Positions 3 through 56,959 are shown, counted from the stretch's first letter. The stretch is DNA of 64,000 bases from Candidatus Woesearchaeota archaeon (GCA_038891615.1 JAWADY010000002.1:64994-128993), one strand, 5' to 3'. Numbers and translations: made by a program. The notes: generated from the letters alone by a model not told the origin.

Positions 3-881
3 ATGTCAAAAAACGTCTTTGCGTTTAAGAAAGCACCGCCAGAATATCCCTACTCCCCATTCCCAAAACCGCCAATATTTCCTTCTGCACCAACATACGG
101 CTATTACGGTGATATAAGTATAGTGACTGAAAAAAGACTTTCTGCGGAGCTGAGCTCATACATAGAATCAAATATCCAAAGCTGCACTGATTGGTCAAGC
201 TTTGCACAGAAAGGGATTGATGTAAAAGTTGGTAAACCATCAGCGGATGTCCTTTTTGGAGACTCTGACACAACAGTCTCGCTTAGGTGGCGAATAGAGG
301 CAAAAAGCGGCCAGGCAGAAGCGGTCATAAACAAATTTGCAGCAAGCATTCCGGTTAGAATGAAGGTTGTACGTAACTATGCTCTCGAGATAGCCTCAAA
401 TGACACCCTTTACTATGACTATGAGCCTAGCAGTGCTCCAGCAGTCCAGGTTTTCAAAAGGGTTGATGGCAAAAGCGACATAATTCAAATCACAGATACG
501 CTTTCAAAAGTTGACACAAAACCGTTTATCTTCAGGTTTGCAAGAAAGAATAGGCCTCCTGTGCTTTTCGATTCTGATATTAAATTGCGATTTAATGAAA
601 TTTTTGCTTGCCCAGGCGATGTTATAAGTTTTGATGGCAAGACATTCAAAATAACTAAACAAAATGGTGACATTCGCTTTTCTTTTGCACCAAATGCAAC
701 AGATTTTGATGAAGATTCTAGTTTATCATTTAATGTTTCTGATAGAGGTGGTGAGCCCTTTCCTTTAAGCACAACTCAGCAAATGGCAAATATTGGTAAA
801 AGAGAACTAAGAATAGAAGTCAGTGATGGTCTTGAAAAAGATTGGTATGATGCAAGCCTGACTTTAAAAACAAAATGTTAA
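3..881 (+). CDS. 5'-truncated secreted/extracellular protein of unknown function; stop overlaps the start of the giant downstream gene (ATGTTAA)
   Basis: Open frame enters from the window edge, 292 aa, no TM in the visible part. The 7-nt overlap with the 875 ATG suggests translational coupling. No recognisable family. Confidence 0.45.
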   Translation: MSKNVFAFKKAPPEYPYSPFPKPPIFPSAPTYGYYGDISIVTEKRLSAELSSYIESNIQSCTDWSSFAQKGIDVKVGKPSADVLFGDSDTTVSLRWRIEAKSGQAEAVINKFAASIPVRMKVVRNYALEIASNDTLYYDYEPSSAPAVQVFKRVDGKSDIIQITDTLSKVDTKPFIFRFARKNRPPVLFDSDIKLRFNEIFACPGDVISFDGKTFKITKQNGDIRFSFAPNATDFDEDSSLSFNVSDRGGEPFPLSTTQQMANIGKRELRIEVSDGLEKDWYDASLTLKTKC

Positions 882-3800
882 GAAAAGAAGTTATTGGAAT
901 CTTTGTAGTGCTGTTCTTCGTAGTAATTGGAATCGCGGTCATTGCACAGGAAGAAAAAACAGGTTGTTGTTGTGATGAAAATGGAACTGCAATGGATTAC
1001 AGTCCTTTCCATACCCAAAATGAGTGCACTGATCCATTCACCATTCTTGTTCCACTTTCTTCAGAAAACATAAGCAAGTATACTCCTGACAACATCTCAA
1101 AAATATGTATAGACGCTTGTGGTGGTGCAGCCCCTAAGCCTTTACCATTGCCACTTGCTCCAAAAATAACTTTTTTTAAAGCAGAACCGTTGATGGGCCA
1201 AAAGAAATTTTTGCTCACCTGGGAGATAAATCAAACACCAAATGTCATCTATATAGACAGGTGCAAAGGAAATGACTGCACTAATTTTGGCAACATTGCA
1301 ACCTTTGCTGGAACCTCAAGGTCTTATGTCGATGATGATGCAAGCCTTGAGTGGCTAACAAATTACACCTACAGGTTGAGGATTGTCAATACAATTACAA
1401 GCCCACCACAAGAATCAAGCATGACAGCATCCTCAAGCCTTGGCGACATTGAGTGCTGGAATCGATTCGACAAAACTCCTTTCTGCATTTCAGAGTACTA
1501 CTATTGGAATGAGCCTATTCAGAGCTATCTCAAGAATTTTGGCTATTTTGGTTTCAGTTTCACTGATAATTTTGCAAGACAGGTGCGGACTGTTTTTGGA
1601 GTAACAAATCTTGACCACATAGGAAAGCTCGACTCAAGATGTCATGTGGTTGGCATAAACAGACTCAGTCAGTCTTCCTCAAGGTGCAAGAGCAACGAGA
1701 CTTGCCTTGTTGTGGATTCAAACACAATCTGCATAACCCCTTCACCTTGCGATACAAGCTTTAATGCAACCTCTGCTTCTTGTGAAAACACCCCTTCAGG
1801 TACTCCAAGCTATTGTTTCTCTGATAAGAGCCAAAGTGTTATTGAGCGCTGCTACAGTTGTGATAAAAGGATGAGCTGCTATGACTATCGTTCAAAAGAG
1901 GCCTGTGAGAGGGATGCATGCGGAATTGGAGATTGTATATGGAAGCCAACTTATGGAGCAATTGGAGTTGGAGTTTGCATCAATCCTTCTCAAAACAACT
2001 GTCTGCTTTGTGACAAGAAAACAGGAGACCTTCTTTCAGGCTTGGATTCAAAAAAATGGCCTAGTCTTTTGGCTTATAATGAGCTTTTTGACGCCTGCTC
2101 ACAGCTAAAGGCAGAAGCTCTTGGCAAATGCCTTGCCGTGACAGACCCTTCAACAGGAAAAACTTCTCCAAAGACTTGCGAACAAGCAACCTGCAGCGAT
2201 TATAAAACTCAGCAAGAATGTAATGCCGACACTTGTGGGTTGGGAATATGCAAATGGTTTGACTCACCCACCTTCCGCGGCTGTGCAAAGGATGCTGACA
2301 CCCCTCCTCAAGCCCCTGCAACAGATAGTGATGGTGATGGTATTCCTGATTGGTGGGAAATCAAGTATGGTTTGAATCCTAACAATCGTGATGATGCTGG
2401 TAGTGATTCTGATGGTGATGGCTTGAGCAATTTGGATGAATGGTTGCGTGGGACCCTTCCAAACAATCCTGATAGTGATGGTGATGGTGTCTCTGATCTT
2501 AATGATAATTGCCCTGGTACTCCTTCAAACACTTTTCAAGTTGATAGCAATGGGTGCCCTCTTCCTGTTAGTGATACCACTGATTCTGATGATGATGGTA
2601 TTCCTGATTGGTGGGAAAGAAAGTATGGTTTGAATCCTAACAATCCTGCTGATGCTGGTAGTGATTCTGATGGTGATGGCTTGAGCAATTTGGATGAATG
2701 GTTGCGTGGGACTCTTCCTAACAATCCTGATAGTGATGGTGATGGTGTTTCTGATCTTAATGATCAACATCCTGGTACTCCTTCAAACACTCAAGTTGAT
2801 AGCAATGGGCGCCCACCTCAAGGCAATGGCAAGCCGGATTGCATTGATCCAAACACAGGTGAAATAGATCCTGCGTGCGAAGCAGACAAGTGGTCACCTG
2901 AAACAGTCATTATCCCTGTGGGTGACAGAGGGGCTGTAAAATACCTATACATACAAATTACTGACCAGTTCAAAAGCACAGGTGAAAAATTAACTATTGC
3001 GCACTCTGGAACTGGAACAAAGGCAGAGTACTTTCCTAAAGGCTACAGCACTTTTCTTTGCGTTGGTAGCCTTTGCTCACCAAATGTTCGTGTGAACGCA
3101 ACTCCCTTGACTGTTGTAAATGGCTTCTTGACAATAAATGGTAAGCCTCTTGGACTGCAGCTTAAGGATGGTTCCAACATCTTAAGATTCTACTCACAAG
3201 ACCCTGCAAATAATAATGAACAAGTTAAGCAGCTAGAGGTGAATGCCTGCACAGGCTGTCAGGGACCTGCTCTCATTACTCCAATTGATATCGAAGGCGC
3301 AAGAATTGTAAATGGTGAGTATTATACAAAGCTAACACAGCCGCAAATAAAGCTATCCTTTGATGCAAAGGCAGAACTTGTTTTAAAGAGGCTTGTTTTT
3401 GGCAATTCTTTTACTGAGCTTAGCTCAAGCCCACAATCCGGCTTCAGCCAAAACTACACATTACTACCTCCTGAGCTAGCAGAAGCAAAGTATGTTCTGC
3501 AAATAAATGCTCGTGGAGAAAATGGAATCTCGAGCTCTAATACGCCTTACAGCTTCAATTTGACGATAGACAAAACCCCGCCACTCCTTTCATTCAATGT
3601 TGAACAAAACAGCATCTTAGAAAACCCAGACCAGTCTTTTGTGCTTAGCTTTAATGAGCCTGTCTTTGTTACTTCCATTTTTTTCGATGAAGAGCATGTT
3701 GCTCAAAATGGTCGCAAGTATGTTTTTACAAGAAATCTAACCTCTGAACTCAAGCAAGTGAATAGCAGCAAATATAACCTAACTGTTAATGGAATTCCTG

Positions 3801-6355
3801 ATGGGCATGTTGCGCTAAGAGTTACAGCAGAGGATTATGCCGGAAATACAATGGCTTCTGTGCTAAACTTTATTATTGACTCAACAGGCCCGGTCATTTC
3901 TCTGGCACAACCACTATTCGGAATTTCTGACAAGACACCATTTGACATTGTCGTTGAAACAGACCAGCCAGCTATCTGCAGATATTCAACAATTCAAAAT
4001 GTTGACACTGCGAGCATAAGCTATGATGCAATGGCAAAGTTCTACATACCTGAAAAACAAACCGCACAGCACATCATACAAGGCTTTGACGAGCTCACAG
4101 GAAAGCCAGAAAACACGCCCTGGAGGTTCTATGTTGTTTGCAAGGATGGCAAGCAACGCCAGTCTAACGAAACCTTCTGGCTGTCCGTTGATTCTGCTCC
4201 TCCAAAAATAACAGCTGCTTATGCAGAACCAAATCCAATCGTTGAGTACACAGACAGTGAGCTGCTAACAACACTGAAAGTCTCAACAGAACGCAGCTCC
4301 TTCTGCAGTTACAGCACAACAACCACGAGCTTTAGCCCTGAAAATGGTTTTGAAGGGACAGGCATAACTCCAAGGCAAGCGCACAATGCTGTGGTTAAAA
4401 TAACCACTTCTCCGACAACTTATAACATCGCTTGCATTTCACCAACCGATTATGGCAAAGCTGCGCCAAGAACAGCAACAGCAACAATAAAAATCACTGT
4501 TGACGTTGCAGCACCACTAACCATTTCCTGCAGCTATTGCCCTTCATTCTGGAATTCTACCACAAAAAACATATACCTGACCACAAACAAGCGCGCGCAA
4601 TGCTTCTGGACACTTGACAAGACAACCACTTCTTTTGGTACAGTTGGATATGAGCACAGCACCACTCTGAAAGTGCCATCTCTTGGCGAGAAAAAAGTGC
4701 TCTTTAGCTGCAATGCAGGCGCCCAAAGTGCAACCCTTGAGTATTCATTTCTTGTAGACAACAGCCCTCCTGTAATGCTCTATGTTAGTGATAACTCAAG
4801 CCTTAAAGAAGATACAGAGCATAGCTATTTCACAGATAGGTTAAGGGCAGCATGGCTCGGGCAGGATAATGAAAGTGGAATAACACGGTATTATTACTCT
4901 TTAATCGAAAAGGCAAACAACGCTGTTGTGATAAATTGTTCACCTGGCTCTCAACAAAACAATTGCCGATTCTCAACAGTACTTGATGGAAATTTCTTTG
5001 ACATTACGCAGGACCATAATGGAAAGTCGCTCAATTTAACAGACGGCTTTAGTTATTTCTTGAAGGTTTGGCCCCTAAATAGGGTTGGTCTTCTTGGAAA
5101 TCCAATGGACTCGGATGGAGTTGTAATAAACAAAAGCAAAAAGCCAGCTCACTGCAGCGATGGAATAACAAATGAAGGCGAATCAGGGCAGGACTGTGGT
5201 GGAGAGTGCGAGCCTTGTCCTGATGGTCAGCCTTGTAGGTCTGATTCGGACTGTCTCTCAAAAACCTGTATAGAAGGTTCGTGCAAGGCTCCGAGCTGTA
5301 CAGATTTAAGAAAGAATGGTAATGAAAGCTCAATCGATTGTGGTGGGAGCTGTCCAACAAAGTGCGAAGCTGGTAAAAGTTGTAACACTGACAGCGATTG
5401 CAAAACAGGACTAAGCTGTATATCTGGTGCATGCGCAGAACCAACAGCTTGCGAGAATGGTATACTTGATGGGCTTGAAACAGACATTGACTGCGGAAGG
5501 GTTTGTCCAACAAAATGCGCAGCTGGAAAGGGCTGTCTTGATAATAAAGATTGCGCTGATGGGCTATATTGTGTTAGTGGTGTTTGTTCTTCAACAACTC
5601 CAACCGCTGATTCTGATGGTGATGGTGTCACTAATGATCTTGACCAGTGCCCAAACACTCCGAAAGGTGAAAAAGTAGATAAAAACGGTTGTTCAGCAAG
5701 CCAGCGTGACACCGATGGAGATGGCATGAATGATGCTTGGGAGATACGCTATGGCTTTGATCCTGAGAATCCTGCTGATGCTTATACAGATGTCGATGCT
5801 GATGGCCTTAGTAATCTTGAGGAATTCAAGTTAGGAACTGATCCAAGAAACCCAGATACTGATGGTGATGGTTGGAGTGATGGGGCTGAGTTCAAGGCAG
5901 GAACAGACCCTCTAGACCCTGCCTCAAAGCCATCCGCCCCTATTGTGAGAGCTTTGCCATGGCTGTTGCTTGTTGCAATCCTTGCCATAGCCGGTTACGC
6001 AGCTTACAAGTACAGGAAGCAAATTGCTGCAATTTTTGTAAGGAAAAAGGTAATTCCTTTGCCAAAGCCGCCTGTGGTGTGGAGACCGCCACCAAGGCCT
6101 GTCCAAAGAGTTGTGCGTGTTCCAACAAGAGCAGAGTTAATCATTGAACAGCTTAGAAAGATTGCCCGAGCTACAAAGGCTGAAGAAGAGGAATACATTC
6201 CTGTAGAAGAGCTTGCCAGAAGGGCAGCTGCGCTAGAGCCAACAGAAGAAGTACTTAAGCATCTAAAGGCAGCAGTAAGAAAAAGCCCTGAGTTTGCAAG
6301 GGCTGCAGCTGCCCAGCCAAAGCTCAGAGCGATGCTCAAGAAAAAATCAAAATGA
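875..6355 (+). CDS. Giant (1826 aa) membrane-anchored surface protein/adhesin with thrombospondin type-3-like Ca-binding repeats (DxDxDG), Cys-rich modules, a C-terminal TM helix and a roughly 130-aa charged cytoplasmic tail
   Basis: N-terminal hydrophobic signal/anchor (IGIFVVLFFVVIGIAVIA). Repeated DSDGDG(I/L/V)xD...WE..YGLNPNN motifs. Four roughly 43-aa 6-Cys modules (CxDGxxNGxExxxDCGGxCxxCxxGxxCxxDxDC...C..GxC). TM ALPWLLLVAILAIAGYAAY near the C-terminus, followed by a Pro-rich then helical K/E-rich tail. Confidence 0.8.
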   Translation: MLRKEVIGIFVVLFFVVIGIAVIAQEEKTGCCCDENGTAMDYSPFHTQNECTDPFTILVPLSSENISKYTPDNISKICIDACGGAAPKPLPLPLAPKITFFKAEPLMGQKKFLLTWEINQTPNVIYIDRCKGNDCTNFGNIATFAGTSRSYVDDDASLEWLTNYTYRLRIVNTITSPPQESSMTASSSLGDIECWNRFDKTPFCISEYYYWNEPIQSYLKNFGYFGFSFTDNFARQVRTVFGVTNLDHIGKLDSRCHVVGINRLSQSSSRCKSNETCLVVDSNTICITPSPCDTSFNATSASCENTPSGTPSYCFSDKSQSVIERCYSCDKRMSCYDYRSKEACERDACGIGDCIWKPTYGAIGVGVCINPSQNNCLLCDKKTGDLLSGLDSKKWPSLLAYNELFDACSQLKAEALGKCLAVTDPSTGKTSPKTCEQATCSDYKTQQECNADTCGLGICKWFDSPTFRGCAKDADTPPQAPATDSDGDGIPDWWEIKYGLNPNNRDDAGSDSDGDGLSNLDEWLRGTLPNNPDSDGDGVSDLNDNCPGTPSNTFQVDSNGCPLPVSDTTDSDDDGIPDWWERKYGLNPNNPADAGSDSDGDGLSNLDEWLRGTLPNNPDSDGDGVSDLNDQHPGTPSNTQVDSNGRPPQGNGKPDCIDPNTGEIDPACEADKWSPETVIIPVGDRGAVKYLYIQITDQFKSTGEKLTIAHSGTGTKAEYFPKGYSTFLCVGSLCSPNVRVNATPLTVVNGFLTINGKPLGLQLKDGSNILRFYSQDPANNNEQVKQLEVNACTGCQGPALITPIDIEGARIVNGEYYTKLTQPQIKLSFDAKAELVLKRLVFGNSFTELSSSPQSGFSQNYTLLPPELAEAKYVLQINARGENGISSSNTPYSFNLTIDKTPPLLSFNVEQNSILENPDQSFVLSFNEPVFVTSIFFDEEHVAQNGRKYVFTRNLTSELKQVNSSKYNLTVNGIPDGHVALRVTAEDYAGNTMASVLNFIIDSTGPVISLAQPLFGISDKTPFDIVVETDQPAICRYSTIQNVDTASISYDAMAKFYIPEKQTAQHIIQGFDELTGKPENTPWRFYVVCKDGKQRQSNETFWLSVDSAPPKITAAYAEPNPIVEYTDSELLTTLKVSTERSSFCSYSTTTTSFSPENGFEGTGITPRQAHNAVVKITTSPTTYNIACISPTDYGKAAPRTATATIKITVDVAAPLTISCSYCPSFWNSTTKNIYLTTNKRAQCFWTLDKTTTSFGTVGYEHSTTLKVPSLGEKKVLFSCNAGAQSATLEYSFLVDNSPPVMLYVSDNSSLKEDTEHSYFTDRLRAAWLGQDNESGITRYYYSLIEKANNAVVINCSPGSQQNNCRFSTVLDGNFFDITQDHNGKSLNLTDGFSYFLKVWPLNRVGLLGNPMDSDGVVINKSKKPAHCSDGITNEGESGQDCGGECEPCPDGQPCRSDSDCLSKTCIEGSCKAPSCTDLRKNGNESSIDCGGSCPTKCEAGKSCNTDSDCKTGLSCISGACAEPTACENGILDGLETDIDCGRVCPTKCAAGKGCLDNKDCADGLYCVSGVCSSTTPTADSDGDGVTNDLDQCPNTPKGEKVDKNGCSASQRDTDGDGMNDAWEIRYGFDPENPADAYTDVDADGLSNLEEFKLGTDPRNPDTDGDGWSDGAEFKAGTDPLDPASKPSAPIVRALPWLLLVAILAIAGYAAYKYRKQIAAIFVRKKVIPLPKPPVVWRPPPRPVQRVVRVPTRAELIIEQLRKIARATKAEEEEYIPVEELARRAAALEPTEEVLKHLKAAVRKSPEFARAAAAQPKLRAMLKKKSK
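2324..2830 (+). repeat. Near-perfect tandem duplication (2 x 258 bp) inside the giant surface-protein gene, encoding two almost identical 86-aa TSP3-like units
   Basis: DNA units starting at about 2324 and about 2582 are nearly identical (gattctgatggtgatggcttgagcaatttggatgaatggttgcgtggga... in both). The protein units differ at only a few residues. Confidence 0.85.
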
Positions 6356-6852
6356 GACTTGGCCAAATAGTTGGGCAAATATTTCTTTTCTTGTTGGCAA
6401 CAATTGTTTTTGTTTTTATAGTTGTTTATGGCTATCGCGCAATAGGCAACCTTGTTGCAAAAGGTGAGCAAGCAGACCTAGTGCGATTCAACAGCGAGCT
6501 CAGTTCCGCAGTTAGTGCTATATCCCTTGACTATGGCAGCGTGCGTTGCCTAGAGCTCAGCCTTCCAAAAAGATATAGAACCTTTTGTTTTGTCGGGCAG
6601 GAGCCTGACATAGGCGCACTTTCCTTGGTCAGCCCATTAATTGCAAGTGCTGTCCAGTCAGGGATTAAGCAAAATGTTTTTTTAATCCCCCCTTCACCGC
6701 TTCAACTATATCTAGAAAAGGCAACGACAAAAGCAGAGGGAGGATTTTTTTGCATAAATACAAGCGGACCAACAAATCGCTTGCTACTCAGGCTTGAAGG
6801 TGGCGCAGGAGGAATTGCAGAGCTACAAAAATGGCAAGGAGCAAGCTGTTAA
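6352..6852 (+). CDS. Pilin-like protein with class III (type IV pilin-type) signal peptide
   Basis: N-terminus MRLG|QIVGQIFLFLLATIVFVFIVVYG: short basic segment, G at -1, Q at +1, then a roughly 20-aa hydrophobic helix. Lies directly downstream of the giant gene. Confidence 0.55.
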   Translation: MRLGQIVGQIFLFLLATIVFVFIVVYGYRAIGNLVAKGEQADLVRFNSELSSAVSAISLDYGSVRCLELSLPKRYRTFCFVGQEPDIGALSLVSPLIASAVQSGIKQNVFLIPPSPLQLYLEKATTKAEGGFFCINTSGPTNRLLLRLEGGAGGIAELQKWQGASC

Positions 6853-8856: not shown

Positions 8857-10827
8857 CTATTTGCTAAAAGGATTTCTCATTTGCTTTGCTACCCAGACTG
8901 GGCTAAAATCTTCATAATCATTATCAGTAAGCTGCTCGAGCTTATCCTTTTCAATGTTGTAAACAAAGATTTCGCAATCTCTGTCTTTTTGTTTCTGTCC
9001 AAAACGAAACCAAGGGCAAGCAGAAAAGGCAATGCCTTTTGAGTCTTGCGACCAAGCAATGTTGTCCTCATTTACAAAAAAATTGTTTGGAATGCTAACT
9101 TTTTTGATGCTTAGTTTTGGCCAATCCGCTATATTGACAATGGTTACAATACTGCTCCCCTTATACCTTATTGCAAAATGTTTCAAATCTGGAGAGTTAT
9201 ACATTGCTAATGCCTGGTCTGGAAGTTTTGTCACAAATTTTGGCTTGTCCACACCGTTCTTACAAGATTCTTTTCTTTTTTTCTGGCAAGAGGCTAAGTC
9301 ATAAAGGGTGGCTTTCTCGAGTGCTAGAAAGTAAAGAAGGTTTTGGCTTTCACCTTTTGGATGATAAGGACTGGCTGCGAGGCTAAAGAACAAGCCAGGC
9401 TTTGCAAAAGTCAGTGCAGTAACATAATATCCCTTTTTTTCAAAAATCTTAAGTTTGATTGGGCTTTCTGATCCAAAGATTTTATAAGCATATATCTTGC
9501 CCTTCTTCTCATTGTTGGCATAAACGAGCCAGTTAAAATCAAACCACTCAAAGGCTTCCCACTCTGATTTGTCGTCGTACCCTGTTGATAAATTCTTTAT
9601 TTTGTTCTCTTCCGTCTTTAAAAGGGGAGCGAGCCTGATAGTCTTCCAGGACTTTTCTGCAACGCATCCACATTGTGGTGAGATCTTTATTTTGTGATAA
9701 AAGGATAACCCAGAACTTTCAGCAACATCCCCAAGCTTTGGAAAGAAGTAATGTAGTTTGTTGTCTATCACCACACCAACAGTTTCTCCATCGCTGCTTT
9801 TTATTAGGTTTTTGGCTTCCTTTTTTTTAAACACAACCACATTATGCGTTTCCTTTAATGGTGACCGTGGATAAACAAAGTTTATTCCGAAGTTGTCATC
9901 TAATCGTGAAATAAAGTATATTTTCTCATCAGTGACCAATGAAGAAAGCCAGATGAAGAATGAGGCTGTTGTGACAAACGCCGACCCTAAAAACCATTTC
10001 CTGTTTTTGCGCCACCAAAGATACCTGCACGCCTTTTTAGCGCTCCATCTTTTCTTTAGATTTGTTTGAAGAAAGCCAGAAATAAGTTTGCGAAGTGGAG
10101 CTTTTTTAAGTCGTTCATATTCTCCAGAAATTATTTTTTCTCGCAACCTTTCACGCTCAGCATCCTCAAAAGGAAAGCTACCAGTTATAAGCTTGTACAG
10201 TGCAACGCCTGCCGCCCAACTATCACTTTGTTGCGATGGCATAAAGCCTTTTAGTAGTTCTGGCGCACGATAGAGCAAGCTACCATAGCAAGGGCCGTAG
10301 TGTAGCTCCTTGCTGTTCGATAGTCCGAAGTCAACAATTTTTATCTTTCCTTCAGAAAGAATGAGGTTTTCAAGGCTCAGGTCACCATGTGTAACACCTC
10401 TTGAGTGCAAAAAGTCAAGTCCTTTACAAATCTGTTCCGCGCATTCAATGAGTTGCTTTTCATCGAGTTTGCCTGCAACCTCGCTCAGCTTTCTGCCTTC
10501 CACATACTCTTCAACAATAAATGGCAGGCCAGTCTTTTCGTCTATGTTAACAAAGTAGATTTTAGCAATATGTTCATGGCCTTTGCCGCGCTCCTCACGC
10601 AACTTTGTAAGAATTTTTGCCTCGCGCTCAAATGTGCTTTCAATGCTTACATTCCTATAAGCTGGAAATGAGCGCGAATGTTTCAGAATTTTTAGTGCAA
10701 CTGTTATGCCTTGTTGAGTATCATAAGCCTTCCAAACTTCTTTAAAAGCGCCGCCACCAATCTTTTCAATGAGTCTAAACTTACCGTTATTAAAAAAAGC
10801 ATTATCCTTAAATTCTTCTTCAGCCAT
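8857..10827 (-). CDS. Eukaryotic-like Ser/Thr protein kinase fused to a TM helix and a C-terminal PD40/TolB-like beta-propeller domain
   Basis: Kinase subdomains G-x-G-x-x-F-x-V (GGGAFKEVW), VALK, HGDLSLENLIL, DFG, APE. Internal hydrophobic helix (FVTTASFFIWLSSLV). C-terminal WSQDSKGIAFSA-type PD40 repeats. Confidence 0.8.
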   Translation of the reverse strand: MAEEEFKDNAFFNNGKFRLIEKIGGGAFKEVWKAYDTQQGITVALKILKHSRSFPAYRNVSIESTFEREAKILTKLREERGKGHEHIAKIYFVNIDEKTGLPFIVEEYVEGRKLSEVAGKLDEKQLIECAEQICKGLDFLHSRGVTHGDLSLENLILSEGKIKIVDFGLSNSKELHYGPCYGSLLYRAPELLKGFMPSQQSDSWAAGVALYKLITGSFPFEDAERERLREKIISGEYERLKKAPLRKLISGFLQTNLKKRWSAKKACRYLWWRKNRKWFLGSAFVTTASFFIWLSSLVTDEKIYFISRLDDNFGINFVYPRSPLKETHNVVVFKKKEAKNLIKSSDGETVGVVIDNKLHYFFPKLGDVAESSGLSFYHKIKISPQCGCVAEKSWKTIRLAPLLKTEENKIKNLSTGYDDKSEWEAFEWFDFNWLVYANNEKKGKIYAYKIFGSESPIKLKIFEKKGYYVTALTFAKPGLFFSLAASPYHPKGESQNLLYFLALEKATLYDLASCQKKRKESCKNGVDKPKFVTKLPDQALAMYNSPDLKHFAIRYKGSSIVTIVNIADWPKLSIKKVSIPNNFFVNEDNIAWSQDSKGIAFSACPWFRFGQKQKDRDCEIFVYNIEKDKLEQLTDNDYEDFSPVWVAKQMRNPFSK

Positions 10828-45550: not shown

Positions 45551-46705
45551 CTAAACTTTGAAAAGCCTTTCATGCAGCTTGCTAAAAGCTTTTAATCGCT
45601 CAAGAAATCGGTGCCATGCGCGCCTAGGAATACGCGCTCCCGCTGCCGGGATGTGGCCTCCAGCTGCTGCTTGAGCAATCCCTCGCACAGCCCGGTCAAG
45701 GAGTGCATTAACCTTTACTTTTTTGTCACTCCTTCTTCCGCTGACATCCCACCAGCCATCAGCACGCCGATAAACGATGAGCGTACGGTGAGGGTGCCTA
45801 AAGGCTGCTATTGTGCTAAGCGTAGAAGAGATTTTGAGTGGTGAACTTGCATCATAAAAAACTATTTCTCCAGGAGGAGTATTTCTCACAGCAATGTCAA
45901 ACCTTTTTAAGTGGCCCTTCAACTCATCATTCATTTTCTTTGTAATGAGTTTGAATGCGTTTATAATCTCCAAAGGGCTCTTTGCATCATAGACAACCTT
46001 CCAACATTTTTTTACACCATCTTTGCTGTACTTTATTGCTGATTGGATTGCATTGGCCGCCTTTCCAAAAGCACTCCTCCACACATCCTTTCCAATCCTA
46101 AGTCTTTTTTTGGCCGCAGCCTTTTGAACAAAGCCCTTCCAACAATTATAACCTGCATCCGCAACAATTCCTATTGCTGCAATCCAATCAAACGAAGAAA
46201 TGTCAGCAACGGTCATTCCAAAATCGTATGCAAGTTTTGAGCTGCAATAGCTCGCAGCCTCTTTTGTTGAGAAAAGCTGCGGTTTTATCAAAAGACCATT
46301 TTTAATTGTTTTTGAGTACAAAGGGTGATGGTCAAGGATAAGAAGCCTTGCAAAACTTGAGATGCTTTTTACGATATTCTTTAGTTGATCAAGCGCAAGG
46401 TCTGTTGTTATAACCATGCTAATCCTTGCTCTTTTTAGTTTTGAAATTGTTGCTTTGTTTGGTCTTCGTTCAGGTTCTGAAATAACAAGTTCTGGTGACC
46501 TTCCCCTCACCGCTTCAATGAGTTTCGAAATGATTACTGCAGAGCACAGCCCATCAGGGTCTGCATCATGAATTATTGCAACCCTTCTTCCTCGTGTTGA
46601 AGCAAGGAATCTTACAAAGCTACTCTCCAGCCTTTCACGAACCTTTTCAAGCGATTTATGCTTTCTTGTCATATCCTCTCTTGCGTTTGAACGCAAATAT
46701 GCCAA
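45551..46705 (-). CDS. DHH/DHHA1-family phosphoesterase (RecJ-like / nanoRNase-like)
   Basis: IHDADPDG (motifs I-II), LDHH (motif III), and C-terminal GGH-type DHHA1 motif (AAGGHIPAAG). Confidence 0.7.
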   Translation of the reverse strand: MAYLRSNAREDMTRKHKSLEKVRERLESSFVRFLASTRGRRVAIIHDADPDGLCSAVIISKLIEAVRGRSPELVISEPERRPNKATISKLKRARISMVITTDLALDQLKNIVKSISSFARLLILDHHPLYSKTIKNGLLIKPQLFSTKEAASYCSSKLAYDFGMTVADISSFDWIAAIGIVADAGYNCWKGFVQKAAAKKRLRIGKDVWRSAFGKAANAIQSAIKYSKDGVKKCWKVVYDAKSPLEIINAFKLITKKMNDELKGHLKRFDIAVRNTPPGEIVFYDASSPLKISSTLSTIAAFRHPHRTLIVYRRADGWWDVSGRRSDKKVKVNALLDRAVRGIAQAAAGGHIPAAGARIPRRAWHRFLERLKAFSKLHERLFKV

Positions 46706-46736
46706 AATGACAGCTTGTCAACTCTTGGCAGTGCTT

Positions 46737-47123
46737 TCAAGAATCACTGCCTTTTTTTCTCATACGCTCAAAAGTCGCAGCGATATCAATTATGTACTTC
46801 CCATCAGCAACTTTAAATATCAATGGCTCATTTTTAAAAAGCCTTACGAGGTCTAGTTCGTACTTTCCTGGCTTCAGAACATTAATGCTCTCCAAGTCAA
46901 GCACAACTGGTTTTTCTGGCTCTTCAAGTCCTATAATTTTGAAGATGTCAGATTCGATTTCTTTCTTTTCCTTTTCTGAAAGAGGGCTCGCTGGCCCTTC
47001 TGGTTGCTTCAGCTTTTCTTTCTTTATGAAAAAGAAAAGCTTCCCACCACAGGAACAACCCTTTAGTATCGCAGAAGAGCCATCATCGTAGAACGTATTG
47101 CACCGTACGCATTGGTGTGGCAT
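46737..47123 (-). CDS. Zn-ribbon protein (CxxC...CxCGG), third member of a conserved archaeal GTPase-associated trio
   Basis: MPHQCVRCNTFYDDGSSAILKGCSCGGKLFFF N-terminal zinc ribbon. Confidence 0.5.
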   Translation of the reverse strand: MPHQCVRCNTFYDDGSSAILKGCSCGGKLFFFIKKEKLKQPEGPASPLSEKEKKEIESDIFKIIGLEEPEKPVVLDLESINVLKPGKYELDLVRLFKNEPLIFKVADGKYIIDIAATFERMRKKGSDS

Positions 47124-47126
47124 TTG

Positions 47127-47507
47127 CTATCTTTTTTTCCTCTTTTCTTGTGTAAAAAGTTCAATTTTGTGAGGGTCTTTCTTTATCTTCTTGACTATGC
47201 TGGCTGGCCCGATTATGGTCATTCCCTGCCTGTTTCCCAAAAGAAAGCTAAGGACGTTTTCGCGGAATTTCTTAATTCCTGAGAAGTTGCCTTGTTGAGG
47301 ATTTATAACTGCAAGCTCTATCCCTTTGAAATCCTTATTTATCTCTTCCATTGTTGCTTTTATAAGTTCAGCCTCTTCGTCCTTCGATAATCTCCCCTGA
47401 AAAAGAACTATCTTGTCTTCTTTTGCGACATTTAACAACTTTCTTATTCTTCCAACAGAGCTAAGCTGTTCAAGCTCACTATATGGAATGAATTGCAGGG
47501 TCACCAT
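47127..47507 (-). CDS. Conserved hypothetical protein (126 aa) between the small GTPase and the Zn-ribbon protein
   Basis: Tightly packed (1-3 nt spacers) with both neighbours on the same strand. No motif recognised. Confidence 0.45.
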   Translation of the reverse strand: MVTLQFIPYSELEQLSSVGRIRKLLNVAKEDKIVLFQGRLSKDEEAELIKATMEEINKDFKGIELAVINPQQGNFSGIKKFRENVLSFLLGNRQGMTIIGPASIVKKIKKDPHKIELFTQEKRKKR

Positions 47508-47508
47508 C

Positions 47509-48147
47509 TTATTTTCTCAGAAGCTCGTATAATTTTTCATAAAACTCGTTAATGTTCTTGCCATATTTTGCAGATATGCCAATAACATCGTATTGAGGAA
47601 AGGCTGTCTGAACCCTTTTCAGCTTGGCACGCTTGAGGTCTATCTTGTTTGCAGCGATTAGCACAGGTATTTTTCGAGCAGCAAGGTTCCCAACTATTGT
47701 TATGTTAACTTGTGAATAAGGGTCCTGAGTTGCATCTAATACGAGTACAACCCCGTCAACATCATCCAGCCACTTTATTGCTTCTATCACTCCTTTTGTT
47801 GCTTCGCGCGCCCTGCGCTTCGCTTTTGATTCAGGCAGCCCACTTTTGATGAAATCCTCATAATCTATTCTTGTTGCAATCCCTGGCGTATCAACAAGAC
47901 TAAATTGCAGTTCCTTGCCCTTCTTTAGTTTTATTACAATTCGCTCTTTTACATTGACCTCTCTTGTTTCGTGCGGAACTGGACTGACCTTTCCCATTTC
48001 TTTGCCAATCCAGTCCAAGCATATCTTGTTCGCAAGAGTTGTTTTCCCTGAATTTGGAGGACCATAAAGGCCAAGTTTAAGGGACTGTCTTCTTTTGAAA
48101 AGCTCGCCAAAAAGACCTCCGAAAACGCTCTTCAACAGCTTTAACAT
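47509..48147 (-). CDS. Small GTP-binding protein (Era/EngB-like fold)
   Basis: G1 GPPNSGKTT, G3 DTPG, G4 NKID, G5 SAK. 212 aa. Confidence 0.7.
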   Translation of the reverse strand: MLKLLKSVFGGLFGELFKRRQSLKLGLYGPPNSGKTTLANKICLDWIGKEMGKVSPVPHETREVNVKERIVIKLKKGKELQFSLVDTPGIATRIDYEDFIKSGLPESKAKRRAREATKGVIEAIKWLDDVDGVVLVLDATQDPYSQVNITIVGNLAARKIPVLIAANKIDLKRAKLKRVQTAFPQYDVIGISAKYGKNINEFYEKLYELLRK

Positions 48148-48243
48148 CTCTGCACCGCTTTTGCAATAAACAAAATAGGTTTTTATTTAAAACTTTCTAA
48201 AGAGAAAAATAAAAACTCAAGGCAAGAGAAGAAGTCAAATGCT

Positions 48244-48477
48244 TTAGCGACCCCGCGCCATCTTTGCCCTTGAGATATCTCCCTTTTTGTCAATGAAATA
48301 AAGATAACCTGGCTCTTTTTTGACTCCAACTTTCGCGACAAGCTCAGGCTTTCCTCCACGCCCCTTCCTGCCCCGTGCCATCTTGACCCTACTGACATTT
48401 CCCTTTTTGTCAACAAAATAAAGATATCCTTCTGCTTTTTTGACACCAACTTTTGCAACCTTTTCAGCCATTTTCAA
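48244..48477 (-). CDS. Small K/R-rich protein (77 aa) made of two near-identical roughly 37-aa repeats
   Basis: Protein repeats VAKVGVKKAEGYLYFVDKKGNVSRVKMARGR / VAKVGVKKEPGYLYFIDKKGDISRAKMARGR. The underlying DNA is a tandem roughly 111-bp duplication. Confidence 0.5.
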   Translation of the reverse strand: MKMAEKVAKVGVKKAEGYLYFVDKKGNVSRVKMARGRKGRGGKPELVAKVGVKKEPGYLYFIDKKGDISRAKMARGR

Positions 48478-48562
48478 CCCCCTTTAATTTTCTTTTCAAA
48501 TCGACGATAAAAGCGTCTTTGAAGCAAGAAACAGTTCTAGTTTATAAAGTTTGCGTCTTTCT

Positions 48563-48787
48563 TCATCCCTTACTTTTGCGTGCTTTCATTCGTGGTTTTA
48601 GGTGGGCTATTTTGTGCCTCTCTTTTCCAAGGTACCATACAGGTCTCAAAAGCTTCTGAAGTTTTGCAGCAGTTTCGAGAGATTCTGTATACTCTCTAAA
48701 TATTTTCTTTCTACTATGTGGTATAAGTGGTTCTATCTTTTTTGCTTCTGCAAGTGCCAACTCAACGATAGACCTCTTTTTTGCCAT
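48563..48787 (-). CDS. Small basic protein (74 aa), possibly ribosome/RNA-associated; unassigned
   Basis: Lys/Arg-rich, no Cys. Plausible coding frame, no family recognised. Confidence 0.3.
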   Translation of the reverse strand: MAKKRSIVELALAEAKKIEPLIPHSRKKIFREYTESLETAAKLQKLLRPVWYLGKERHKIAHLKPRMKARKSKG

Positions 48788-48875
48788 TTCCTCAAATCTT
48801 AGCCTTGTATCTTTTGTATAAAAATGCTTCGGCGAAAGGCATTTATATCCTCCAGCCGTTCTTGAGGTGGGGAAA

Positions 48876-50066
48876 ATGAAATTTGCACATCTTGCAGACT
48901 GTCATATCGGTGGATGGCGTGAGCCTGTTCTCCGTGAACTGAACAACAGAGCATTTTCAGAAGCTGTTGCGCGATGCCTTGCAGAAAAGGTCGACTTTGT
49001 ACTCATAGCAGGAGACCTTTTTAACACCTCACTGCCTGCACTTGATAGTCTTAGGAGCGCTGTTGCTGGCCTTCGCGAACTGAAGGAAGCTGGAATTCCA
49101 GTTTATGCAGTTCCTGGTAGCCATGACTATAGCCCAAGTGGCAGGACGATTGTTGATGTGCTTGAGAGTGCAGGGTTGCTTGTCAATGTTGTAAACGAAG
49201 AAGCAAATTTTGTCGTAGATAAAAAGACTGGAGCAAAGCTCATAGGACTTCCTGGTTGGAAGGGTGGGCTTGACCAATCACTCTTCTCTTCAATTGACAA
49301 AAGTGCACTTGAGGCTGAAAAAGGTTTCAAGATCTTCCTATTCCACACGACGGTGAAGGAGCTGATAACAAAAGATTTTGAAATGATTCCATCTGTGCCA
49401 GCTTCAGCTTTTCCAGAAGGGTTTGACTATTATGCAGGTGGTCACATTCACATTGTCAGCAGGCACAGGTTTGGGAAGGGGTTTATGGTCTATCCAGGGC
49501 CGCTCTTTCCGAACAACTTTTCAGAGCTTGAGAAGCTGGGAGCGGGAGGATTTTTCGTATATGAAGATGGCAAGCTTGAGCATGTAAGACTCGAGCTCTG
49601 TCCTGTTCGGCCTTTAGTCTTGGATTGCAATCACAAACGGCCAGCTGAGATTTGCCAGGAGATTGCACACAGGATAGACCAGCTTGAGCTTAAAGGGGCC
49701 TTGCTGCTTGTCAGGCTTTATGGAAGCCTGGCTGGGAAATCTACAGAGATTCCTTTTAACGAGTTGTTTGCACGCGCATACGAGAAGGGTGCACTCTTTG
49801 TTCTCAAGAATTCTCATCAGCTCATAAACGAAGAACTTGCAAAGACCGAAACTGTTTCGGGAACTGTTGAGGAAATAGAACAGAGTGTGATTGAAAGCTT
49901 TTCAGGAAAAGGCCCTTTTACAAAGGAAAAAGAACGCCAGCTTCTTGCCGCCATTATGCAGGTGCTTTCTGCTGAAAAAGCCGAGGGTGAAACTACTGTT
50001 GATTTTGAGACAAGACTGAAAAAAGCCGTTGCAGGGGTCTTAGGCATAACACAGGAGGCACACTAA
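48876..50066 (+). CDS. mre11: Mre11/SbcD-family metallophosphoesterase
   Basis: GAGGTGG Shine-Dalgarno then MKFAHLADCHIGGW (motif I). DFVLIAGDLFN (II), GSHDY (III), GGHIH (IV/V). No rad50 adjacent. Confidence 0.6.
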   Translation: MKFAHLADCHIGGWREPVLRELNNRAFSEAVARCLAEKVDFVLIAGDLFNTSLPALDSLRSAVAGLRELKEAGIPVYAVPGSHDYSPSGRTIVDVLESAGLLVNVVNEEANFVVDKKTGAKLIGLPGWKGGLDQSLFSSIDKSALEAEKGFKIFLFHTTVKELITKDFEMIPSVPASAFPEGFDYYAGGHIHIVSRHRFGKGFMVYPGPLFPNNFSELEKLGAGGFFVYEDGKLEHVRLELCPVRPLVLDCNHKRPAEICQEIAHRIDQLELKGALLLVRLYGSLAGKSTEIPFNELFARAYEKGALFVLKNSHQLINEELAKTETVSGTVEEIEQSVIESFSGKGPFTKEKERQLLAAIMQVLSAEKAEGETTVDFETRLKKAVAGVLGITQEAH

Positions 50067-50074
50067 GAAAATTT

Positions 50075-51385
50075 CTATGGGCTTTTTCTAAGCATTGTTC
50101 GTGGAAAGGGTATTGCATCTTTTATGTTGTCAAGTCCACAAATCCACGATATGACGCGCTCGATGCCCATCCCAAATCCAGAATGTGGAACAGAGCCATA
50201 GCGTCTTGTGTCAAAATACCATTCGTAATGTTCTGGATGTTCGCCGCTCTTTTTTAGCGCTTCTTTCATTGCATTGATGTCAAGGTCTCGTTGCGAGCCT
50301 CCAATTATCTCGCCGTACCCTTCAGGCGCGAGCATGTCAAAACAGAGTGCCGTCTTAGGATCTCTTGGGTCTGCTGGCTTATAAAATGCCATTATCTCCT
50401 TTGGATAGTTCGTTACGATGAGAGGCCTGTCAAAATGCTTCATTATTTTGTTCTCTTCAATTGTCCTCAAGTCCTTGCCCCACTGCACTACCAATCCTTC
50501 TTTTTTCTTCAAAAGCTCAAGGACTTGTGTATATGTAAGCCTAGGAAAAGGTGTTTTTACCTTTTTGAGCTTCGACAGTTCTTGCCCAAGCTGTGTTAGT
50601 TCTGAGCTGTTTTCCTTTAACACAGCCTTTACAACGTGCTCAACGAGCTCTTCGGCTTGTTTAATAGCTCCGTCCAAGTCCTGCCACGCTGTTTCGACCT
50701 CTGCCATCCAGAACTCTGCAAGGTGTCTCGAGGTTTTGCTCCGTTCTGCTCTAAAGCATGGACTAATTGTGAATATCTTTTCAAGTCCAAAAATTCCTGC
50801 CTCTGCATAAAGCTGCCAACTTTGAGTAAGGTATGCAATGTCGTCAAAGTATTTTAGCTGGAAAAGGGTTGCTCCCCCTTCGCAAGCAACTGGGGTTATT
50901 ATAGGTGGAGACCATTCGTAGTAGCCTCGCTCATAGAAATAATCTCGTACCGCCTTGAGGATGGTTGAGCGAATCTTAAGGATGTTTGTTAGCTTTCTAC
51001 TTCTTAACCAAAGATGCCTCACATCGAGGAGAAACTCCTGACTAAGATCCTTTGCTATTGGGAATCTCTCTGCAATATGAACAATTTTCAGGTCTGAAAC
51101 TTTTAGCTCGTATCCTGTTGGAGCCCTTTCATCTTTTACAAGCTCGCCCTCAACAATAAGCGAGCTTTCCATTGTTACCTTTTCCGCATTACTGAATAAC
51201 TCCTTTGGCACATTTTCTTTCTTGACAACACATTGTATGATGTTGGAGCTATCTCTTAAAACAATAAACACTTTGTCCGCAAACTTCCTTTCGCGATAGC
51301 ACCAGCCTCTAAGCCTAACCTTTCCTTTACCTTTTTCAAGTGCTTCTTGTATCGAAATAATGCCGTCTTTTTCAGCTACTGCCAT
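50075..51385 (-). CDS. asnS: Asparaginyl-tRNA synthetase (class IIb)
   Basis: Motif 2 FRAERSKTSRHLAEFWMAEVE (the EFWM form is typical of AsnRS). Motif 3 GFGMGIERVI. 436 aa. Confidence 0.75.
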   Translation of the reverse strand: MAVAEKDGIISIQEALEKGKGKVRLRGWCYRERKFADKVFIVLRDSSNIIQCVVKKENVPKELFSNAEKVTMESSLIVEGELVKDERAPTGYELKVSDLKIVHIAERFPIAKDLSQEFLLDVRHLWLRSRKLTNILKIRSTILKAVRDYFYERGYYEWSPPIITPVACEGGATLFQLKYFDDIAYLTQSWQLYAEAGIFGLEKIFTISPCFRAERSKTSRHLAEFWMAEVETAWQDLDGAIKQAEELVEHVVKAVLKENSSELTQLGQELSKLKKVKTPFPRLTYTQVLELLKKKEGLVVQWGKDLRTIEENKIMKHFDRPLIVTNYPKEIMAFYKPADPRDPKTALCFDMLAPEGYGEIIGGSQRDLDINAMKEALKKSGEHPEHYEWYFDTRRYGSVPHSGFGMGIERVISWICGLDNIKDAIPFPRTMLRKSP

Positions 51386-51431: not shown

Positions 51432-52739
51432 TCAGGGCACAACTCGTTCTGGGTCCCTTGGAAATAGCACTCCTTCTCGGATGTTTCCAAGCCCAAGTAT
51501 GTTTTTTACAAGTCTGTCAATGCCAAGCCCGAAACCGCCATGTGGAGGCATGCCATAGCGGAATGCTTCTAGATAAAATGCAAAATCCTTCGGGTCTAGC
51601 CCTTTACCTTTCATCTGCTCAACAAGCTGGATGTAGCGATGTTCGCGTTGCCCTCCTGAAGCAAGCTCCTCTCCACCATACTCGAAGTCAAAGCTCCGTG
51701 ACAGTCCATTCTCTGCCATTATGTAGAAAGGTTTTATCTTGAATGGAAACTTTGTGATAAAGTACGCCTTTGTGCCGTACCTTTTTTTCACAAGTTCTCC
51801 CAAAAGCTTTTCGTCTTCTGCCCCTATGTCCTCGTCTTCTTTTATCTTTGAGCCAGCTTCCTTGAGCATGTCCAAGGCTTCGCTGTACCTTATCCTTGGA
51901 AATGGAAGCTGAGGAGGCTCCAAGTGAATATCAAAAAGGCCCAGCTCACGCGCGAATTCAGATTTTATTTTTCCAATAACAAAAACAAACAACCTTTCAA
52001 GAAGTCTTAGCACATCCTCTTCATCTTTTATGAATGCCATTTCGAGGTCAAAATGCGTGAACTCTGTGAGATGTCTCGTTGTATGCGATTTTTCTGCCCT
52101 AAAGCTTGGCCCTATCTCAAAGACCTTGTCAAAGCCCGAAGCAAGCACAGCCTGTTTGTACAGCTGCTGGCTTTGACTCAGAAAAACTTTTTTGCCATAG
52201 TAATTTACTTGGAAAAGGGTTGCTCCTCCCTCTGCCCCTGCACTTATGAGTTTTGGCGTTTGTATTTCAATAAAACCCTCTGAGTTAAGGAAAGCGCGGA
52301 TTGCAGCATTTAGTCCTGAACGTATTTTAAAAATTGCCAGGTTTTTTCGGTTTCTTAGATCAAGTAGTCTGTTGTCAAGCCTTTTGTCAAGGCCAGTAGG
52401 AATCTTCCCGGAGAAGTCGATTGGAAGCACTGGTTCGCTTTTACTTATTACCTCAAACTTTTCAAGAACAAGCTCTTTTTCTCCAGATTTGAGCTTTGAC
52501 TCAGCCATTTTCCCCTCTGCAACGATTACAGATTCCTTTGGGATCTTTTCAAGCTCAGACATTTTTTCAAAATCTGGAAGAGCTGTTAGCTGAATCTCCC
52601 CTTCCCTATCACGGAGCCTGACAAAAGCAATCTTTCCAATGCGTTTTATGTCAGCCGCCCACCCTGCTACTACAACTCGTGTTCCAGCAGCCTTTTTCAG
52701 CGCCTCGCTTGAATAAATCCTTCTTGCTAGATCTATCAT
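51432..52739 (-). CDS. aspS: Aspartyl-tRNA synthetase (archaeal type, class IIb)
   Basis: FRAEKSHTTRHLTEFTHFDLEMAF (AspRS motif 2 form), GGFGLGIDRLV, N-terminal OB anticodon-binding domain. 435 aa. Confidence 0.85.
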   Translation of the reverse strand: MIDLARRIYSSEALKKAAGTRVVVAGWAADIKRIGKIAFVRLRDREGEIQLTALPDFEKMSELEKIPKESVIVAEGKMAESKLKSGEKELVLEKFEVISKSEPVLPIDFSGKIPTGLDKRLDNRLLDLRNRKNLAIFKIRSGLNAAIRAFLNSEGFIEIQTPKLISAGAEGGATLFQVNYYGKKVFLSQSQQLYKQAVLASGFDKVFEIGPSFRAEKSHTTRHLTEFTHFDLEMAFIKDEEDVLRLLERLFVFVIGKIKSEFARELGLFDIHLEPPQLPFPRIRYSEALDMLKEAGSKIKEDEDIGAEDEKLLGELVKKRYGTKAYFITKFPFKIKPFYIMAENGLSRSFDFEYGGEELASGGQREHRYIQLVEQMKGKGLDPKDFAFYLEAFRYGMPPHGGFGLGIDRLVKNILGLGNIREGVLFPRDPERVVP

Positions 52740-56875: not shown

Positions 56876-56959
56876 GCCTCCGTAGCTCAGTAGTGGAGCG
56901 ACTGCCTTGTATCTGTGCAAGAAAGCAGTAGGTCAGGGGTGCGAATCCCCTCGGAGGCT
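56876..56959 (+). tRNA. tRNA-Thr (anticodon UGU) with a 12-nt intron after position 37
   Basis: Acceptor GCCTCCG/CGGAGGC, D-arm GCTC-AGTAGTG-GAGC, anticodon stem ACTGC/GCAGT with loop CTTGTA[TCTGTGCAAGAA]A, T-arm AGGGG-TGCGAAT-CCCCT. 84 nt against 72 without the intron. Confidence 0.55.

Follow-up and report, generated by a model that had tools for sequence, protein, structure and literature searches.

A candidate DNA-binding protein built from two beta units belongs to a large unannotated family of DPANN archaea, bacteria and phages

The 7-kDa chromatin proteins of Crenarchaeota, Sul7d (Sac7d/Sso7d) and Cren7, bind DNA non-specifically via a three-stranded sheet that carries hydrophobic and aromatic residues together with lysines and arginines. 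Here we describe a gene whose product resembles them. The gene lies on the minus strand of a 64,000-nucleotide stretch of DNA from a Candidatus Woesearchaeota archaeon (GCA_038891615.1, JAWADY010000002.1:64994-128993; the whole stretch is called the window below). It encodes 75 amino acids and, as is characteristic of nucleoid-associated and chromatin proteins, the product is small and strongly basic (8.3 kDa, isoelectric point 10.4, 22 lysines and arginines against 7 aspartates and glutamates). Size (7-8 kDa), positive charge, predicted beta-sheet architecture, a stand-alone monocistronic gene and a lineage-restricted distribution are all shared with Sul7d and Cren7, and we have taken our working model for binding from these proteins. 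The 75-residue protein differs from them in that it has no sequence membership in either family and lacks an SH3-like five-stranded barrel.

Functionally, the protein would be one of the small basic nucleic-acid-binding proteins; neither its sequence nor its predicted fold places it in a described family. Its occurrence in both domains and in phages is unusual, and its conservation is very high. We think it somewhat probable that it is a small basic all-beta protein that binds DNA without regard to sequence, either as a nucleoid protein or as an accessory factor in DNA transactions. DNA is indicated by four independent associations: rare fusions to nucleases, HerA and Mre11 genes nearby in archaea, UvrA in bacteria, and replication, recombination and modification modules in phages. 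Because of these associations, together with the basic composition, we favor DNA as the ligand. That the ligand is DNA, that binding is non-specific, that the protein is abundant, that its sheets pack on each other and which face is exposed is what we infer here.

The open reading frame 48244..48477 (minus strand) is present in the window with TTG as its listed start. The first-pass annotation had described its product as a lysine- and arginine-rich protein of 77 amino acids. The reading frame and the basic character hold, the length most likely does not. The TTG sits inside the 5-nt spacer between a Shine-Dalgarno-like GGGGGT (48477-48482) and an ATG at 48471, all homologues start with MAEKV, and an identical protein in NCBI, P0001 (a hypothetical protein from a Candidatus Woesearchaeota metagenome-assembled genome), has 75 amino acids. 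Hence, the likeliest gene starts at the ATG and has the following parts.

48244..48471, minus strand: coding sequence of 75 amino acids, ATG at 48469-48471, stop codon TAA at 48244-48246; translation MAEKVAKVGVKKAEGYLYFVDKKGNVSRVKMARGRKGRGGKPELVAKVGVKKEPGYLYFIDKKGDISRAKMARGR
48477..48482, minus strand: Shine-Dalgarno-like GGGGGT, 5 nt upstream of the ATG
48370..48465, minus strand: core of repeat unit 1, residues E3-G34, EKVAKVGVKKAEGYLYFVDKKGNVSRVKMARG, delimited by self-offset, unit profiles and the AlphaFold2 model; strands at residues 3-6, 16-20 and 26-30
48346..48369, minus strand: flexible linker rich in Gly, Lys and Arg, residues R35-P42, RKGRGGKP; lower model confidence, varying in length and sequence across the alignment
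48250..48345, minus strand: core of repeat unit 2, residues E43-G74, ELVAKVGVKKEPGYLYFIDKKGDISRAKMARG, delimited in the same way; strands at residues 43-46, 56-60 and 66-70

An out-of-frame open reading frame of 91 amino acids (48183..48458, minus strand) overlaps the gene and exceeds it in length. A longest-frame rule favors this alternative, which is the one argument for the possibility that the 75-residue frame is not a real gene or that the other frame is the expressed one. We consider this possibility refuted. Across all pairs of 84 orthologous genes, the proportions of differences at the three codon positions of the 75-residue frame are 0.26, 0.19 and 0.59. Compared to the closest relative there are 8, 9 and 46 differences, and only 10 amino-acid changes. 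Substitutions dominated by the third position mean strong purifying selection on the 75-residue frame, and this pattern rules out the 91-residue frame as coding; the other frame had already been called the less convincing one. Furthermore, the protein has thousands of homologues (see below), and the Shine-Dalgarno, promoter-like and terminator-like signals are conserved in orthologues. Since the real gene is shorter than the frame that overlaps it, gene callers that follow the longest frame can miss it, and some orthologues may be absent from automatic annotations.

The family is large, and it is common to DPANN archaea, many bacterial phyla and phages. A word-indexed search found 2,676 homologous proteins. 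Most of the 120 homologues listed are 73-80 amino acids long and about 80% identical to the query. An exhaustive profile search yielded 1,267 clusters at 50% identity with E <= 1e-3, 501 of them with E <= 1e-10, and relatives are encoded in at least 569 species-representative genomes. Lack of conservation in relatives, which had been named as grounds for abandoning the gene, is the opposite of what we find.

We analyzed the best 80 loci, which correspond to about 47 archaeal and 37 bacterial metagenome-assembled genomes. The archaeal loci belong to Woesearchaeota and Nanoarchaeota; contigs labelled 'Methanosarcinales' have Woesearchaeota-type neighbors. The bacterial loci are labelled Omnitrophota, Elusimicrobiota/Endomicrobia, Marinimicrobia/Fidelibacterota, Bdellovibrionota, Myxococcota, Nitrospirae, Planctomycetia, Auribacterota and Babeliaceae. 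Contigs as long as 2.98 Mb and 700 kb are among them, and the loci carry Omp85, UvrA and other genes that mark bacteria.

Between Woesearchaeota and at least ten bacterial phyla the protein is 64-84% identical. Archaeal sequences share a mean identity of 0.72 and bacterial ones of 0.67; across the domains the mean is 0.665 (maximum 0.83), and the nearest neighbors by identity mostly come from the same domain. In the same pairs of genomes the protein is 78-87% identical while neighboring genes are 30-76% identical, which makes it the most conserved gene of its neighborhood. An identity of about 67% between archaea and bacteria is unusual for 75 residues. It implies very strong constraint, recent transfer across domains, or both.

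The protein consists of two similar units. At an offset of 40 residues the sequence matches itself at 26 positions, compared to 8.4 +/- 1.3 (maximum 15) in 20,000 shuffles. The repeat itself, first described as two near-identical units of 37 amino acids encoded by a tandem DNA duplication of roughly 111 bp, is thus real, but its period is 40 amino acids or 120 nt, made up of a conserved core of 32 residues and a Gly/Lys/Arg linker of 8 residues. The cores of the two copies are 78% identical as protein; the DNA of the two copies is 70% identical, and Tandem Repeats Finder reports no repeat at the gene. In 83 orthologues, identity between the units at third codon positions is 0.51, and identical residues of the two units share their codon in 55% of cases, where about 41% is expected from pooled codon usage. 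Together, the Tandem Repeats Finder result and the codon analysis rule out a recent tandem duplication or gene conversion. Judging from third positions and codon sharing, the duplication is ancient, and the likeness of the copies at the DNA level is imposed mostly by constraint on the protein.

The two halves of the protein are functionally equivalent, because they have nearly the same position-specific profiles and the same invariant residues. In the same 83 orthologues the profile similarity is 0.71 among first units, 0.71 among second units, 0.69 between first and second units and 0.73 between the two units of one protein. Unit positions G13, L15, Y16, G22, M29 and R31 are invariant in both copies.

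AlphaFold2, run on an alignment of 57 sequences, provides the monomer prediction that had been suggested as a check. The model is confident (mean predicted local distance difference test, pLDDT, 88.8; predicted template modelling score, pTM, 0.73; four of five models at or above 85) and all-beta, with six strands at residues 3-6, 16-20 and 26-30 in the first unit and 43-46, 56-60 and 66-70 in the second. Only the linker and the C-terminal tail are modelled less confidently, with a pLDDT of 69 in the residue block 31-40. The first-pass annotation had proposed a beta-hairpin or SH3-like module: three strands per repeat agree with a hairpin-type element, while an SH3-like five-stranded beta-barrel is ruled out by the model and by structural comparisons. 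The model has no significant match to PDB or viral structures. It shows a weak structural resemblance to pairs of beta-propeller blades.

Sequence searches agree with the earlier statement that no known family is recognized. For the 75-residue protein nothing exceeds the threshold in Pfam, NCBIfam, PHROGs or PADLOC, or in PDB sequence searches with a single sequence or a profile. The hmmscan search against Pfam and the phmmer and hmmsearch searches against all PDB sequences were listed up to E 10, and neither Sul7d (Sac7d/Sso7d) nor Cren7 appears in them. Single-strand-binding protein and RPA families have no match in Pfam, NCBIfam, PHROGs or PDB, and no OB-fold protein is among the structural matches listed for the AlphaFold2 model. 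No published description of the family was found in the literature on DPANN chromatin, nucleoid proteins of Woesearchaeota and Omnitrophota, small basic beta-hairpin proteins, PF27482, YcgL and OapABC. Neither a signal peptide nor a membrane segment is visible in the 75 residues.

Two names can be set aside. YcgL/UPF0745 is the JGI name for some family members, yet no YcgL was found in Pfam or NCBIfam (E up to 10) or in PDB searches. The second domain of GldM (PF21601) scores 14.8 bits against the window protein, below the cut-off of 24.4. The homologue P0038 scores exactly 24.4 bits, covering only positions 54-90 of the 98 in the profile.

Further evidence comes from variant forms of the protein. 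Fourteen IMG/VR contigs encode more divergent relatives with 42-58% identity, and several of these contigs are demonstrably phages (L097 and L099 encode a large terminase subunit). Among viral sources the module was found only in IMG/VR contigs, with no match in GenBank phages; PLSDB also gave no match. Phage contigs carry two-unit forms as well as complete single-unit open reading frames, each with one unit and a basic tail (45 amino acids in L098 and L099, 44 in L100, 50 in L101). Single-repeat homologues, proposed as something to look for, thus exist at a length of 44-50 amino acids, and they support a model in which the cellular protein is a fused dimer. On the 430-kb IMG/VR contig L089 a two-unit module (6001-6396) is fused to a C-terminal extension. 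This extension, which lies outside the module, is 61% identical to the 595-kb uncultured phage genome LR756511.1. Hence, the module is present in very large phage genomes.

The phage copies lie among genes of DNA metabolism. In L090 the end of a DNA primase gene overlaps with it and a helicase lies two genes downstream, in L097 it is three genes downstream of a RecT-like protein, in L099 it is just upstream of ParB-like and DNA-methyltransferase genes, and in L100 it follows a homing endonuclease. In being small, basic and surrounded by primase, helicase, RecT-like, ParB and methyltransferase genes, the phage copies are like the small DNA-binding accessory proteins of phages (histone-like and single-strand-binding proteins). 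They differ in having no similarity to a PHROG family of known function and no OB or HU fold.

Some relatives are longer. Multi-unit forms have three units (P0215), six (P0122) or about eight (P0121); a single-sequence fold of the six-unit P0122 has a pLDDT of 40.5. Long tails that are rich in lysine and arginine or resemble the AKKPAKK tails of histone H1 occur in P0002-P0004, P0019, P0020, P0166, P0226 and P0230, the histone-H1-like AKKPAKK type specifically in P0166, P0226 and P0230.

In other relatives the unit pair is joined to a second domain. It is fused to an HNH nuclease in P0220 (Pfam 2.7e-9; PADLOC Type IV restriction enzyme 1e-20), to an Mrr-type nuclease in P0189 (Mrr_cat 8e-32; PADLOC 1e-21 to 1e-24) and to a PD-(D/E)XK-type defense candidate in P0190 (PDC-S18 2e-12); one family member matches NA-iREase1 (1e-11). 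P0263 is fused to ASCH, a PUA-like domain that is often linked to RNA. The remaining partners are HIT/DcpS_C, nitroreductase, DoxX, OmpA (P0174) and GAF with Prok-RING, and membrane-spanning segments are joined to the unit pair in P0163, P0169, P0178 (the DoxX fusion), P0182 and P0242. Nucleases are the only recurrent theme among the partners.

Type IV, Mrr and HNH enzymes carry a DNA-recognition module at one terminus, for example of the winged-helix or SRA type, and the unit pair occupies the same place at the nuclease terminus in P0220, P0189 and P0190. It differs from such reader domains in fold. These nuclease architectures are also rare, and the great majority of family members are stand-alone proteins of 73-80 amino acids. 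The general nuclease-plus-sensor architecture is described for winged-helix fusions (PMC11037411).

DNA-repair genes recur around the cellular genes in three unrelated settings. Of the archaeal loci, 18 have Mre11 and 14 have HerA at a distance of no more than 5 kb, with at least two gene arrangements, and 11 have a DHH/RecJ-like gene in the vicinity. In one Woesearchaeota clade the gene is preceded by a small conserved open reading frame and stands between ArvABC and HerA-Mre11, whose orientation varies; in another clade two upstream genes precede the gene, and HerA/Mre11 follow. UvrA is immediately adjacent in two bacterial lineages with opposite gene order. In Omnitrophota the order is aspartate dehydrogenase, the gene, then UvrA; in a Marinimicrobia-like group it is UvrA or response regulators, the gene, then a membrane protein of 1,120 amino acids. 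A single conserved operon partner is ruled out, since neighborhoods are lineage-specific and no partner is universal.

How could such a protein bind DNA? In our working model it is a covalently fused dimer, in which each 40-residue period forms a three-stranded antiparallel beta meander (beta1 VAKVGV, beta2 GYLYFVD, a D-K-x-G turn, beta3 VSRAKM). The sheets of the two units would pack together, related by pseudo-two-fold symmetry. Both faces of beta2 bear conserved side chains of aromatic or hydrophobic type, with Y16, Y18 and V20 on one and L17 and F19 on the other. Since both faces are conserved and the sheets are proposed to pack together, one aromatic and hydrophobic face per unit should remain exposed in the monomer. 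Packing and exposed face are deduced solely from strand periodicity and conservation. The exposed face and about seven conserved lysines and arginines per unit would constitute the DNA-contacting surface, by analogy the kind of surface used by Sul7d, Cren7 and single-strand-binding proteins. The Gly/Arg/Lys linker and the C-terminal tail may add contacts to the backbone. Either double-stranded or single-stranded DNA could be the ligand. Two copies of a single-unit phage protein would pair to give the same structure, and in the rare fusion proteins the unit pair would direct the nuclease to DNA. The nucleic-acid-binding function suggested at the outset is consistent with the charge, the nuclease fusions and the genomic contexts.

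Several observations weigh against a DNA-binding protein. The AlphaFold2 model has no structural match to any known DNA-binding fold. All nuclease fusions are singletons at the 90% cluster level and hence rare, so that the evidence they provide is real but thin. Nitroreductase, DoxX, OmpA, membrane segments and GAF are partners with no link to DNA. Neighborhoods are lineage-specific and most neighbors are unrelated housekeeping genes, and part of the HerA/Mre11 signal could be synteny inherited within Woesearchaeota. Finally, the fusions to ASCH and HIT/DcpS-type domains and the hairpin enriched in the 5' leaders of archaeal orthologues fit the binding of RNA equally well. Were RNA the ligand, the protein would be an RNA chaperone or a ribosome- or translation-associated factor; single-stranded RNA would be bound by its Tyr/Lys/Arg sheet surface, and autoregulation might act through the leader hairpin. 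Conservation at the level of ribosomal proteins and flexible segments rich in lysine and arginine, which are typical of RNA-binding proteins, suit this explanation, as does an ArvA/OapA operon next to the gene in one Woesearchaeota clade, which in Haloferax is connected to RNA-carrying vesicles (PMC10927574). Yet a patchy occurrence among bacterial phyla and the existence of phage copies are difficult to reconcile with a core ribosomal role. The partners that recur in fusions are DNA nucleases, the phage copies reside in DNA replication, recombination and modification modules, and adjacency to HerA/Mre11 and UvrA points to DNA as well. We consider RNA binding unlikely.

The resemblance to propeller blades offers a different explanation, that of a fragment-type beta-propeller. 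The unit would be a shortened blade, and several two-unit chains would close a propeller-like ring, which would be a scaffold or would bind a ligand, whether or not nucleic acid takes part. Blades of the YWTD/LDL-receptor class B, Beta-prop_YycP, BamB/PQQ and hemopexin types share the period of about 40 amino acids and an aromatic-x-Y-[FWY]-x-D motif followed by a tight turn and a strand (G-Y-L-Y-F-V-D-K-x-G-D-V-S-R-A compared to L-Y-W-T-D...I-x-R-A), and multi-unit relatives exist. Sequence and structure matches to several blade families are weak, however, and all fall below threshold: for YWTD proteins E is 0.009-0.1, no single stretch being significant, DUF5050 matches at a non-significant E of 0.14, and PF27482 (Beta-prop_YycP) gives only a faint precomputed match in 3 of the 120 listed homologues, below the family threshold. 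Each unit has three predicted strands and not four, the place of the fourth being taken by the variable, low-confidence Gly/Lys/Arg linker. A single chain of two units cannot close a ring, the monomer model is already compact (judging from its pTM), and the protein is extremely basic with flexible linkers, a charge that would oppose tight ring assembly unless a polyanion is present. A closed ring is therefore improbable. Even less credible, in our view, is binding to another polyanion or a membrane surface, such as anionic lipids, polyphosphate or a cell-envelope polymer. The membrane-segment and OmpA fusions listed above would fit, and the aromatic-Y-[FY]-x-D-x-x-G hairpin resembles choline-binding repeats of cell walls (weak PDB match to 3hia, E 1.5). 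But no export signal is visible in the stand-alone protein, such binding would leave the fusions to nucleases and the DNA-metabolism contexts unexplained, and membrane-anchored versions could equally tether DNA to the membrane.

If the DNA-binding protein we propose is real, then a very widespread family is missing from every annotation library queried. It would be a new structural solution among the few known prokaryotic chromatin and DNA-accessory proteins, and a candidate nucleoid protein for Woesearchaeota, Omnitrophota, Elusimicrobiota, Marinimicrobia and others. A broader proposal is possible, and we advance it with some doubt: that this is an undescribed DNA-binding fold and family, a fused dimer of a three-stranded propeller-blade-like unit with single-unit phage forms and about 65-85% identity across DPANN and at least ten bacterial phyla, which serves as a major nucleoid or DNA-protection protein of mostly uncultured small-celled lineages and has spread by horizontal transfer between domains. 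With a unit that occurs alone in phages, as a fused pair in cells and in chains of several in a few proteins, the family is also a clean natural case for the origin of repeat proteins from small beta units.

Expression signals around the gene are the following.

48541..48555, minus strand: archaeal promoter-like element, CGCAAAC resembling a B recognition element (BRE) followed by the TATA box TTTATAAA
48503..48517, minus strand: leader hairpin GACG-cttttat-CGTC
48205..48215, minus strand: T-tract TTTTTATTTTT, 29 nt past the stop codon, resembling an archaeal terminator

About 70 nt separate the promoter-like element from the ATG downstream, and 14 nt separate it from the preceding stop codon, that of the upstream open reading frame. 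TATA/BRE-like element, Shine-Dalgarno motif and T-tract were read from the sequence as consensus matches. Similar signals accompany the orthologues: a TATA-like box lies upstream in 39 of 47 archaeal genes, a Shine-Dalgarno-like motif precedes 46 of the 47 archaeal and all 37 bacterial genes, and a T-tract follows within 70 nt of the stop codon in 46 of the 47 archaeal genes. Its own TATA/BRE-like element and Shine-Dalgarno motif, together with the terminator-like T-tract after the stop codon, suggest that the gene is its own transcription unit, separate from the ArvA/OapA gene downstream.

Most archaeal orthologues have a leader hairpin between TATA box and Shine-Dalgarno motif, with sequences that differ by lineage. 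Compared to shuffled sequences, the best stem has a mean z of 1.8 in archaeal and 0.3 in bacterial orthologues; in the window itself the hairpin is weak (z -0.2). The archaeal hairpin may be a 5'-end stabilizer or an autoregulatory site. Among loci L001-L086, a CGACGG or AGACG word recurs near -50 in the archaeal leaders and is followed by an A-rich run.

In the window the gene is flanked by a divergent Mre11-like phosphoesterase and a co-oriented cluster of GTPase, OapB and OapC genes, beyond which lies a DHH/DHHA1 protein. The downstream cluster (45551-48147) comprises four genes.

47509-48147, minus strand: ArvA/OapA-like small GTPase, directly downstream
47127-47507, minus strand: OapB/ArvB
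46737-47123, minus strand: OapC/ArvC
45551-46705, minus strand: DHH/DHHA1 RecJ/GAN-like protein

OapA, OapB and OapC correspond to ArvA, ArvB and ArvC of the 'archaeal vesiculating GTPase' operon, which drives formation of RNA-carrying vesicles in Haloferax and has been reported in DPANN (PMC10927574). The Mre11-like metallophosphoesterase (48867-50066, plus strand) stands alone, without an adjoining HerA, Rad50 or NurA gene; in related Woesearchaeota, HerA (DUF87) adjoins both Mre11 and the small-protein gene.

Immediately upstream, on the same strand, lies an open reading frame of 74 amino acids (48563-48787, minus strand) without a match in Pfam or PHROGs. It is kept in sequence and position in one Woesearchaeota clade, where it forms a seven-locus cluster with a motif like A..AKKLEKIP.P..EEI..IYK...E.A.KL.K.LKP.WF. 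Similar genes of 66-69 amino acids are called in L001 and L004-L006. The product may be a lineage-specific partner or regulator.

Farther away are two tandem class II aminoacyl-tRNA synthetase paralogues of the Asp/Asn type (50075-51385 and 51432-52739, both minus strand). The pair is kept in L001 and L002, and relatives show tRNA_anti-codon and tRNA-synt_2 domains. A tRNA of 84 nt (56876-56959, plus strand; Rfam 57.7 bits) is not reported by ARAGORN and may have an intron or a long variable arm. A probable giant surface protein of 1,826 amino acids, which contains an Ig-like domain and bacterial TSP3 repeats, is encoded at 875-6355 (plus strand), and a eukaryotic-type Ser/Thr protein kinase of 656 amino acids at 8857-10827 (minus strand).
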